Shown: positions 18,526 through 19,817 of the stretch, piece by piece
Numbering within the stretch: the stretch's first letter is position 1
How the letters are laid out: each line of letters opens with the position of its first letter
Source: a bacterium
Lineage (GTDB): Bacteria > Patescibacteriota > Minisyncoccia > UBA6257 > HR35
Length of the DNA stretch: 32,913 bases
Assembly: GCA_037444025.1 (NCBI GenBank)
Contig: JBBINE010000008.1
Span: forward strand, 1-32,913
Direction: 5' to 3'
Position numbers and translations under genes: made by a program
The notes under the pieces: model-generated
The model's database searches: none
What the model saw: only the letters and a program-made list of their open reading frames with translations
What the model was told of the DNA's origin: nothing

Positions 18526-19633
18526 TATATTTTCTTAACATTTTCTCTAAATCTTTTAAAGTGCAACTCACCTTAGCATATAAATTATGAAAATGAATAC
18601 TTTCATCTACTTCTGTCTCTATTTTAACTTTCATATCTTTATCTTTTATATTTAAATCTATTAGATATTTATATAAATTAAAAGCAACTACTCTAACGAC
18701 ATCCTCACAAAATAATTCTTTCTCATGAGACTCTCTTATAAACAAGTGCTCATCGTTACCGCTTAAAAGTTCTCTCACAATGGTAACCGAATTATCTAAA
18801 ATTTGATAAATATCTCGATAGTTAATTCTATTTTCTTTGTTTTCTAAATATATTTTGACGCTCCCTCTATTGGTATGAGATTCGAAAGGAATTTGTTCTA
18901 AAATTTGATAAATATCATTTTCTTGATAACCTAAATTTTTCAAATGTTGATAAAACTTTCTTATAGCCCATCTTTGTGGGCAAGGACAAGCATTCATAAA
19001 TTGAACTCCTAAACCTATAATATTTTTTACTTTATCATCCTTTAAAATAGAAGTAGAATATAAATTTAAAATTTCATGTCCTTTTCTTCCAGATTGATTT
19101 TTATAGGTATCTTTTTCGTAAATGCCTTCTACAACAATTTCTCCTTTGTTTTTTTCCTGAGTAGCGGCAAGTTCTTTTATTATTGCTTCCGAATACTCAG
19201 ATAAATCCTTAAAAACATTGTCTTTAAATTTTACTAAAACCCTTTCTAATCTTGACATATGTAATCCTCTTTTATTAGCCCTTAAAGGAATAAATATTTT
19301 TAAATCAACTAAAATTTCTATTTTTTTATTATCTTCAAAAGGATCGTAAATTTTTACATAGTGAGGCCTTTGGGTTATACCAACTTTTTTAATAGGAAGT
19401 TTTATTCTGGGTTCACTATCAGGCATATCAACAAAAGATTTATCAAAAATATTATCAAAATTTAGATTCTTTTGTTTTAATATACTACTTTCAGAAAGAA
19501 CAAATTCTTTAGAGTTATCAATAATTTCGACAGTATCATAAATTTGAGTTTTATTATTTTTGCTAAAGAAAAATTTATCTATAATCTTCTTGATCATTTT
19601 ATTTAGCTTCTTTACGGTTTTGTTAATTCTCAA
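18512..19633 (-). CDS. folE2: GTP cyclohydrolase FolE2/MptA family (start TTG 19633 or ATG 19597)
   Basis: KVGI, RGLHMSR, ACPCPQ, SHTNR, FCEDVVR, ESIHFHN. Confidence 0.88.
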   Translation of the reverse strand: MRINKTVKKLNKMIKKIIDKFFFSKNNKTQIYDTVEIIDNSKEFVLSESSILKQKNLNFDNIFDKSFVDMPDSEPRIKLPIKKVGITQRPHYVKIYDPFEDNKKIEILVDLKIFIPLRANKRGLHMSRLERVLVKFKDNVFKDLSEYSEAIIKELAATQEKNKGEIVVEGIYEKDTYKNQSGRKGHEILNLYSTSILKDDKVKNIIGLGVQFMNACPCPQRWAIRKFYQHLKNLGYQENDIYQILEQIPFESHTNRGSVKIYLENKENRINYRDIYQILDNSVTIVRELLSGNDEHLFIRESHEKELFCEDVVRVVAFNLYKYLIDLNIKDKDMKVKIETEVDESIHFHNLYAKVSCTLKDLEKMLRKYNENI

Positions 19634-19651
19634 AAAAACGACCTCAAAAAT

Positions 19652-19674
19652 AAAAAAGGCCGGGGTTGCCGGCC
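19652..19674 (-). terminator. Attenuator terminator hairpin
   Basis: GGCCGG-CAACC-CCGGCC-TTTTTT. Confidence 0.75.
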
Positions 19675-19699
19675 ATTGTATTTTGATTTTTTTTCTAGT

Positions 19700-19780
19700 T
19701 TAAATAAAACATTTGGCCGGCATTTTCTCCCAGCGCAAAATAAACAAAACAAAAATAAGCACAAATAAATTTAAGTTCAT
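19700..19780 (-). CDS. Putative attenuator leader peptide MNLNLFVLIFVLFILRWEKMPAKCFI
   Basis: 26-aa ORF with codons 5-15 all Leu/Phe/Val/Ile, overlapping alternative RNA pairing segments. Confidence 0.65.
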   Translation of the reverse strand: MNLNLFVLIFVLFILRWEKMPAKCFI

Positions 19781-19788
19781 AATTGCTT

Positions 19789-19817
19789 ATTGTATATTAA
19801 AAATTTAATTTTGTCAA
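19789..19817 (-). promoter_or_regulatory. sigma70 promoter
   Basis: TTGACA (19817-19812) - 17 bp - TACAAT (19794-19789), 8 nt before the leader ATG. Confidence 0.8.

Follow-up and report, generated by a model that had tools for sequence, protein, structure and literature searches.

What does a short leader with eleven successive hydrophobic codons and mutually complementary GC-rich segments do upstream of a GTP cyclohydrolase operon in a bacterium with a 550 kb genome? The locus in question lies in a 32,913-nucleotide (nt) stretch of DNA, referred to in full as the window: contig JBBINE010000008.1 (contig C8) of assembly GCA_037444025.1, from family HR35, order UBA6257, of the Patescibacteria. 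The genome that the window belongs to comprises 33 contigs and is estimated to be 94.6% complete. A leader on the window's minus strand precedes three genes, which encode a FolE2/MptA-like GTP cyclohydrolase, a hydrolase of the M19 family and a 527-amino-acid (aa) protein. From the arrangement of the leader and its recurrence in related genomes, we consider it likely, with a probability of about 0.8, that it is a ribosome-mediated (leader-peptide) transcription attenuator controlling this operon.

Patescibacteria, also known as the candidate phyla radiation (CPR), have tiny genomes with few recognizable regulators and are not culturable alone, and their nutrient sensing is largely obscure. Leader attenuation would give such an organism a concrete sensing device that needs no regulatory protein.

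A leader with the parts of an attenuator

The leader element and the operon lie wholly on the minus strand of the window, and the leader is made up of the following parts.

19789–19817, minus strand: sigma-70-type promoter, with −35 box TTGACA (19817–19812), a 17-nt spacer and −10 box TACAAT (19794–19789).
19700–19780, minus strand: leader open reading frame (ORF), 26 codons plus stop, MNLNLFVLIFVLFILRWEKMPAKCFI.
19736–19768, minus strand: 11 consecutive Leu/Phe/Val/Ile codons (codons 5–15), the putative control codons.
19730–19739, minus strand: segment 1 (TTTGCGCTGG), which could pair alternatively with segment 2 (1:2) or segment 4 (1:4).
19701–19722, minus strand: segment 2, the antiterminator 5′ arm, with core TGCCGGCCA (19722–19714) and an A/U extension.
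19664–19690, minus strand: segment 3, the antiterminator 3′ arm, with core TGGCCGGCA (19675–19667).
19646–19674, minus strand: intrinsic terminator, GGCCGG (19674–19669), loop CAACC and CCGGCC (segment 4, 19663–19658), then TTTTTTATTTTT.
19639–19643, minus strand: segment 5, a conserved GGTCG motif just past the U-run, able to base-pair with segment 4 in transcripts that read through.

A preliminary description of the sequence had pointed to a near-consensus promoter, a 26-aa leader with 11 uninterrupted hydrophobic codons, a perfect 9-bp pairing between segments 2 and 3 and a GGCCGG/CCGGCC terminator with six U residues, and each of these is present where it was placed (the terminator at 19674–19652). 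The promoter agrees with the consensus at 11 of 12 positions and is the top promoter-like site within 9 kb (15000–24000), in AT-rich DNA where such sites are frequent (68 found vs 52 expected). Complementarity between segments 2 and 3 is exact over 9 bp (19722–19714 with 19675–19667), and with its flanks the duplex reaches −22.8 kcal/mol; the terminator hairpin (19674–19658) has −10.7 kcal/mol and is followed by T6 at 19657–19652. Segment 3 extends over the loop and 5′ arm of the terminator, with 6 nt of that arm in common, and segment 2 holds the end of the leader ORF, including its stop codon. The −35 box (19812–19817) overlaps the TGA stop of an upstream 75-aa ORF (19814–20041), and the leader may therefore also be reached by read-through from upstream.

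The architecture is conserved and its pairings covary

Of 40 relatives searched, four have a FolE2 homologue. All four carry, directly upstream of the gene, a TTGACA promoter, an ATG-initiated ORF of 21–26 codons with a Leu/Phe/Ile run, segments 1–4, the terminator and its U-run. The genes upstream of the leader differ among these relatives (a tRNA, a superoxide-dismutase-like gene, others), while the three downstream genes are identical in kind. A scan of metagenomes yielded four more intact and distinct versions of the folE2 leader, together with one degenerate copy, L019 (L019:1540–1703), in which the ATG is lost and the 3:4 terminator pairing broken but the 2:3 complementarity kept; this is possibly a constitutive variant. 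The inspected upstream sequence of L011, a FolE2 of 36% identity from an unrelated GC-rich bacterium, holds no such leader.

The preliminary description had likened the architecture to that of the trp, ilv, leu and phe attenuators and had called for a search for covariation upstream of orthologues. Apart from the degenerate L019, the architecture recurs at every FolE2–M19 operon found, with differing pairing flanks; all 33 intact leaders retain the ORF in frame with its stop in segment 2, and the covariation is there. Lineage-specific flank sequences extend the 2:3 helix to 8–16 bp, as in the perfect duplexes of L004 (11 bp), L017 (12 bp), L016 (15 bp) and L018 (16 bp), and in L006 the helix exceeds 20 pairs. 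RNAalifold, given 11 sequences, returned 2:3 as the consensus structure, with seven pairs changed on both sides. We then used a covariance model built from the folE2 leaders (R1) and aligned 35 distinct rows to it, an alignment that is fitted to the model, consists of related sequences and includes two reverse-strand matches. In it, pairing in helix 2:3 reaches 95.6%, with two-sided changes at 9 of its 10 pairs; for both modelled helices together, the observed values were reached by 0 of 500 shuffles, and sliding the helix partners by 1–3 columns lowered pairing from 92% to 15–49%.

An analysis of each sequence by itself, independent of the alignment, gave the same picture across 34 distinct leaders. 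A terminator of −5.5 to −22.8 kcal/mol is found in 33 of them, the exception being L019, and the same 33 have a stronger antiterminator (−19.5 to −40.4 kcal/mol) that overlaps the terminator 5′ arm by 4–11 nt. Where the GC segments are unrelated in sequence (L039, L059, L050 and a second copy on contig C5 of the same genome as the window), the topology is unchanged. Weak R1 matches (L049, L051, L067), a near-duplicate (L014) and duplicate loci (L031–L033, L037) were dropped before these counts. The three weak matches were rejected as attenuators on inspection: L049 is without GC-rich pairing segments, L051 lies inside a longer open reading frame, and in L067 a terminator is not evident.

Segment 5 appears to be a further part of the element. 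Its pairing with segment 4 is found in 83% of cells across the 35 rows, and RNAalifold predicts a 4-bp helix. A GGTCG-like motif past the U-run is present at the same place in related leaders. Such a helix could lock the read-through conformation or alter the stability of the mRNA 5′ end.

The leader reading frame is maintained, and its putative control codons are hydrophobic

All 33 intact leaders have an ATG-initiated ORF of 17–27 codons, where 3.9 would be expected from shuffled regions; of the remaining two frames, one is open in 2 and the other in 6 of the 33. The position of the stop is held as well: in 33 of 33 it falls 5–33 nt past the first paired base of segment 2, and between 18 nt before and 7 nt after the last. 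Conserved leader composition was another feature that the preliminary description had proposed to look for, and it is borne out in the control window, the codons 4–10 upstream of segment 2, which are 64–97% hydrophobic vs 39% in the proteome. Hydrophobic codons thus occupy the window where a stalled ribosome would leave segment 2 free.

Could these codons be a mere by-product of a U-rich tract, as the preliminary description had itself considered? Across 231 control-window codons, T frequency at codon positions 1, 2 and 3 is 0.50, 0.79 and 0.58, and because T peaks at position 2 the signature is one of NUN codons rather than of a plain U-tract; the commonest are ATT, TTT, TTG, TTA and GTT. Its other proviso, that the ORF might encode a conserved membrane peptide, fares no better. 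Uninterrupted hydrophobic runs span 3–13 residues (median 6), with 0 of 33 reaching 18, and no one reading frame is kept through the GC core of segment 2, the three frames accounting for 12, 11 and 5 of 28. With runs this short and a core read in every frame, the peptide would not be a membrane helix, and it would not be a conserved arrest motif either. The leaders also fall into compositional classes, including Phe/Tyr-rich and Ile-rich ones.

Translation of these ORFs would probably begin at, or nearly at, the 5′ end of the transcript. The leader ATG in the window stands 8 nt past the −10 box, and for this reason we regard the transcript as leaderless or nearly so. A promoter matching at least 9 of 12 positions lies directly upstream in 29 of 33 leaders, and in 27 of these 29 the −10 box ends 6–15 nt before the ATG. 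No Shine-Dalgarno use was seen in this genome, in which GGAG, GAGG or AGGA occurs at −20 to −4 of 13 of 319 long ORFs, equal to the shuffled count. The lack of a Shine-Dalgarno sequence in the leader is therefore no argument against its translation.

Alternative folds and a model for switching

As for the folds themselves, the preliminary description had posited 1:2 plus 3:4 as the alternative to 2:3. The 1:2 pairing does appear in the minimum free energy (MFE) fold of the window leader, but the full-length free RNA, folded without constraint, prefers one long hairpin that combines 1:4 with 2:3 and ends at the U-run. This preference is widespread: in 28 of 33 leaders the full MFE fold has the 1:4 arrangement, with four or more bases of segment 4 paired to sequence upstream of segment 2. 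A 1:2-type pairing is seen in the folded nascent RNA of 31 of 33.

Masking parts of the leader to imitate a ribosome changes the predicted outcome. In free RNA the long hairpin adjoins the U-run, and termination is predicted. With segment 1 covered, as by a ribosome on the last hydrophobic codons, 2:3 forms alone and leaves the U-run without a hairpin, predicting read-through. With segment 2 covered, as by a ribosome at the stop codon, the 3:4 terminator forms. In computation, then, the positions of the control codons and the stop, and the masking folds, reproduce the stall-and-finish geometry of ribosome attenuators.

These features suggest the following sequence of events. RNA polymerase would start a few bases before the ATG, and a ribosome would load on the leaderless or nearly leaderless 5′ end. 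When charged Leu, Ile, Phe and Val tRNAs are plentiful, the ribosome would reach the stop codon and cover segment 2, 3:4 would form, and the transcript would end near 19652. A ribosome stalled in the last hydrophobic codons would instead cover segment 1 and leave segment 2 free, allowing the stronger 2:3 pairing to form; segment 4 would then stay single-stranded, and polymerase would read into the operon. With no ribosome on the leader, the long 1:4 plus 2:3 hairpin ending at the U-run is predicted to terminate transcription. From this arrangement we infer that starvation for Leu, Ile, Val or Phe would induce the operon.

A family-wide class of leaders

The leader is not peculiar to the folE2 operon but is a member of a family-wide class. 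At E ≤ 0.1, R1 has matches in 22 of the 25 family genomes, often with several copies in one genome. With the limit at E ≤ 0.001 and stricter Infernal filters, 5 of 7 family genomes sampled have a match, and none of 143 genomes that represent 31 other families in the order does. From the 44 R1 rows in family genomes we retrieved 30 loci and inspected 3 more, and in 22 of 22 loci with usable flanks a co-directional ORF of at least 70 aa follows within about 500 nt (in 17, within about 120 nt). The genes downstream of R1 leaders are diverse.

GTP cyclohydrolase II and M19 hydrolase: L038, L041, L046, L056 and genome G017.
Threonyl-tRNA synthetase (ThrRS): L055 and L048.
Class Ib aminoacyl-tRNA synthetase: L036.
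S13–S11 ribosomal-protein genes: L052 (G019:C33) and L066 (G014:C9), from one genus; IF1 precedes them in L052.
M28 and M20 peptidases: L053 and L054.
PIG-L family genes: L040 and L047.
MscS and M50: L057.
Mpg: L044.
PfkB kinase and a weak DAHP-synthase-family match: L039, L059 and L050.

Leaders may also stand in tandem: on G020:C38 (15115–15698; L043 and L057), two lie about 270 nt apart, an Ile-rich one (MLKNINIIIAITEAGKGR, L043) before a 73-aa ORF and the other (L057) before MscS and the M50 protease.

Within the genome that holds the window, R1 finds one copy, the leader itself, at 104 bits. A match at window positions 24544–24694 is spurious, lying inside a 708-aa ORF, and the other lesser match is the reverse strand of the leader; in a DNA search, a second match on contig C14 shared only the promoter with it. 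A scan that is independent of sequence similarity produced 312 terminator-like hairpins in this genome, and from these emerged the window leader and one further convincing attenuator, which answers the preliminary description's call to look elsewhere in the genome. This second, sequence-unrelated attenuator lies on the minus strand of contig C5 at about 68926–69112 (locus L068, C5:64500–69300), with GC segments unrelated to those of the window leader. It has the promoter TTGACT-17-TATAAT, an Ile/Asn/Thr-rich leader of 29 codons (MIIMKTLINKINILTIVKAPKSRGSPFYC), an antiterminator of −26.7 and a terminator of −13.9 kcal/mol, and is followed by a 192-aa ORF without a Pfam match. Because R1 missed this copy, it undercounts the class.

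The cyclohydrolase–M19 cassette

The operon downstream of the leader in the window consists of three genes.

18512–19597, minus strand: first gene, FolE2/MptA-like GTP cyclohydrolase, with a conserved ATG at 19597 and an ORF that is open back to a TTG at 19633.
17578–18525, minus strand: second gene, M19-family metallo-hydrolase (“membrane dipeptidase” family), overlapping the folE2 stop.
15984–17567, minus strand: third gene, encoding a 527-aa protein whose small family is restricted to the lineage.

By Pfam, the product of the first gene is assigned to the FolE2/MptA family (PF02649, E 3e-37, 129 bits vs a cut-off of 25), and both relevant NCBIfam models match below their cut-offs (MptA 164 vs 220 bits, FolE2 90.5 vs 215 bits); its orthologues share an MIK... 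start. The second gene matches PF01244 over residues 1–300 (E 6.3e-40, 137.7 bits vs 26), and its dipeptidase activity is putative. An M19 gene is present in 10 of 25 family genomes, always directly after a cyclohydrolase gene, and the order leader, GTP cyclohydrolase, M19 is kept in 10 of 10. The cyclohydrolase itself is not constant: it is FolE2/MptA-like in five genomes and an unrelated, RibA-like GTP cyclohydrolase II in the other five. Compared at the same cassette position, the window gene (18512–19597) and those of L038, L041, L046, L056 and L078 represent a non-orthologous replacement. Such an exchange of two unrelated cyclohydrolases suggests that the requirement of the cassette is for the cleavage of GTP as such.

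The third gene is kept in the cassette, and its versions in the two cassette types are homologues (BLASTP E 2e-24). It has no Pfam or NCBIfam match, and its family counts 19 representatives among 1.84 billion proteins. An AlphaFold model of the protein is confident (pLDDT 89.1, pTM 0.88). Foldseek gave no match in the PDB at E ≤ 0.001, and the ESM Atlas gave no usable match. The best VIA-align scores, to BshC (Z 7.0), class I LysRS (Z 5.8) and GluRS (Z 4.3), are weak and within the usual background. Residues H266, G268, E270 and G272 are invariant in the family.

The finding points to a tightly regulated cassette of interchangeable, unrelated GTP cyclohydrolases with an M19 hydrolase and a protein of unmatched fold. 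In one genome (G010) further genes follow in the operon: one that is glycoside-hydrolase-like, one for an M20 dipeptidase and one for a branched-chain aminotransferase of class IV. We found no paper on a gene cluster of GTP cyclohydrolase and membrane dipeptidase in the literature.

Since folE2 can feed queuosine synthesis, we considered whether the leader senses queuosine-dependent Asn, His, Asp and Tyr codons. A TGT gene is present in the window (7968–9167, plus strand), a search of the 94.6%-complete genome did not turn up QueD/PTPS, and the codons concerned lie outside the control window; we rejected the idea. With QueD/PTPS not found, the cyclohydrolase is left without an evident queuosine pathway to feed, and the presence of TGT suggests salvage of queuine or preQ rather than synthesis. 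The same genome has a protein with a RelA/SpoT domain.

Weighing the explanations

Several observations weigh against a starvation-responsive attenuator. Folded as a single sequence, the window leader is not significantly stable (z −1.91; 9 of 200 shuffles fold as well), and because fold energy and promoter match alone prove little, the case rests on conservation and covariation in related loci. There, the comparative statistics are overstated, as the related sequences are not independent, and R1 matches are biased towards U-rich and GCCGG features because the model was built from folE2 leaders. The targets, moreover, are not genes for the biosynthesis or charging of Leu, Ile, Val or Phe, and the classical feedback logic is unmet (G010 alone has a branched-chain aminotransferase). 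One generic hydrophobic run precedes ThrRS, a class Ib aminoacyl-tRNA synthetase, IF1–S13–S11, MscS, Mpg and PIG-L, and it would be odd for starvation to induce the ribosomal-protein genes S13–S11. The sole apparent match between leader composition and gene function is a Phe/Tyr-rich leader before a DAHP-synthase-like gene (DAHP_synth_1, a weak 33.7 bits). Chorismate synthase was not found in the four genomes of the Phe/Tyr-leader genus, nor in the genome that holds the window; given this and the weak DAHP match, the link to aromatic synthesis is unsupported.

A generic run before unrelated genes fits nearly as well with the same ribosome-driven switch sensing general translation status, whether ribosome availability, elongation rate or inhibitors, with the hydrophobic run acting as a slow or pause-prone stretch. 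The spread of targets, peptidases included, would suit such a sensor, as would the absence of biosynthetic genes for the run's amino acids from among them and a leader composition that is not tied to target function. Yet ATT, TTT, TTG, TTA and GTT encode the commonest residues of the proteome and so are not obviously slow, a non-specific sensor has no need of Phe/Tyr-rich and Ile-rich classes, and the G010 operon combines a branched-chain aminotransferase with dipeptidases. We hold this explanation to be unlikely. Further from the evidence stands the proposal that the leader encodes a functional hydrophobic peptide, be it an arrest peptide like SecM or MifM, a small membrane protein or a type I toxin. 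The polar N-terminus, hydrophobic core and Gly/Pro-rich end do superficially resemble a signal peptide, but runs of 3–13 residues fall short of the roughly 18 needed to span a membrane in all 33 leaders, a segment 2 core read in three frames would make the C-terminal peptide a by-product of the RNA, and the downstream proteins are not membrane-insertion factors, making this a highly improbable account. One might also think of a switch that binds a ligand or a protein, such as a riboswitch or a PyrR- or TRAP-like protein acting on the U-rich tract, with the ORF incidental. A terminator/antiterminator pair alone would suit it, and the first gene, a GTP cyclohydrolase, belongs to a class that is regulated by riboswitches elsewhere. 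Against it, no Rfam family matches at threshold, the element stands before many unrelated genes, and what is conserved is not an unpaired, aptamer-like core but the ATG, the open frame, the stop position and the T at codon position 2. We give this account hardly any credence.

If ribosome-mediated attenuation is what the leader does, the amino acids that it would sense, Leu, Ile, Phe and Val, are some of the commonest residues of an AT-rich proteome. The dipeptidases and the aminotransferase found among the targets would suit an auxotroph that scavenges amino acids; no simple scheme accommodates the cyclohydrolase. A more far-reaching idea, which we offer as speculative and rather doubtful, is that the leaders form a family-wide starvation regulon and the main nutrient sensor of these very small bacteria, which depend on a host, and that the cassette is a new GTP-consuming pathway switched on when Leu, Ile, Phe and Val tRNAs are uncharged. 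For this idea, we take the third protein to be faintly like class I aminoacyl-tRNA synthetases or BshC-type ligases. Amino-acid supply would then be coupled with the pool of GTP, or with some product made from GTP, much as in the stringent response.

Comparison with known systems

The leader-peptide attenuators of enterobacteria include the multivalent ilvGMEDA-type leader and the trp, leu, his, thr and pheA class. Like these, the leader described here has a promoter-proximal short ORF with control codons of the Leu/Ile/Val type, and its four segments can pair as 1:2, 2:3 or 3:4. It shares with them a GC-rich terminator with a U-run, a stop codon at which a finishing ribosome would block segment 2, and a peptide end rich in Gly, Arg, Pro and Ala that stems from the GC-rich stems. 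It differs from them in its targets, which are a GTP cyclohydrolase–M19 cassette here and aminoacyl-tRNA synthetase or peptidase genes elsewhere, rather than biosynthesis of the sensed amino acids. Its ORF is, by position, leaderless or nearly so and is without a Shine-Dalgarno sequence, Phe codons are mixed with those for Leu, Ile and Val, the free RNA prefers the long 1:4 plus 2:3 hairpin, and there is an extra segment 5 past the U-run. The host, too, is different, a member of the Patescibacteria/Paceibacteria with a 0.55-Mb genome.

The best Rfam match is Phe_leader (RF01859), at 29.9 bits (E 0.0079) vs a gathering score of 55, and the leader is not a member of that family. The alignment covers the full length of the model, over the ATG, the U-rich codons and the terminator, while most pairs of the modelled first helix are non-standard here. 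The antibiotic-sensing leader attenuators of Firmicutes likewise have a short hydrophobic leader ORF on which a stalled ribosome remodels downstream hairpins; those respond to drug-bound ribosomes and control resistance genes, whereas no resistance gene lies downstream here.

A functional parallel comes from mycobacteria, whose leaderless polycysteine short ORFs are summarized as first cistrons with a codon run said to tune downstream expression to one amino acid (bioRxiv 10.1101/834739). Both are leaderless, or nearly leaderless, short ORFs with a codon run, of Leu, Ile, Phe and Val here and of Cys there, in different phyla. Set beside the summary description of the mycobacterial elements, the leader here has an explicit intrinsic terminator/antiterminator pair with covariation.

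In full-text searches, outside subscription journals and supplements, we found no description of attenuators or cis-regulatory RNAs in Patescibacteria. The attenuator design is itself a known one; what stands out in this variant is the lineage, the near-leaderless start, the non-biosynthetic targets and the spread across a family. If our reading of these leaders is right, classical attenuation has been re-used in this family for scavenging and housekeeping genes rather than for the biosynthetic operons that it serves in the ilvGMEDA class.

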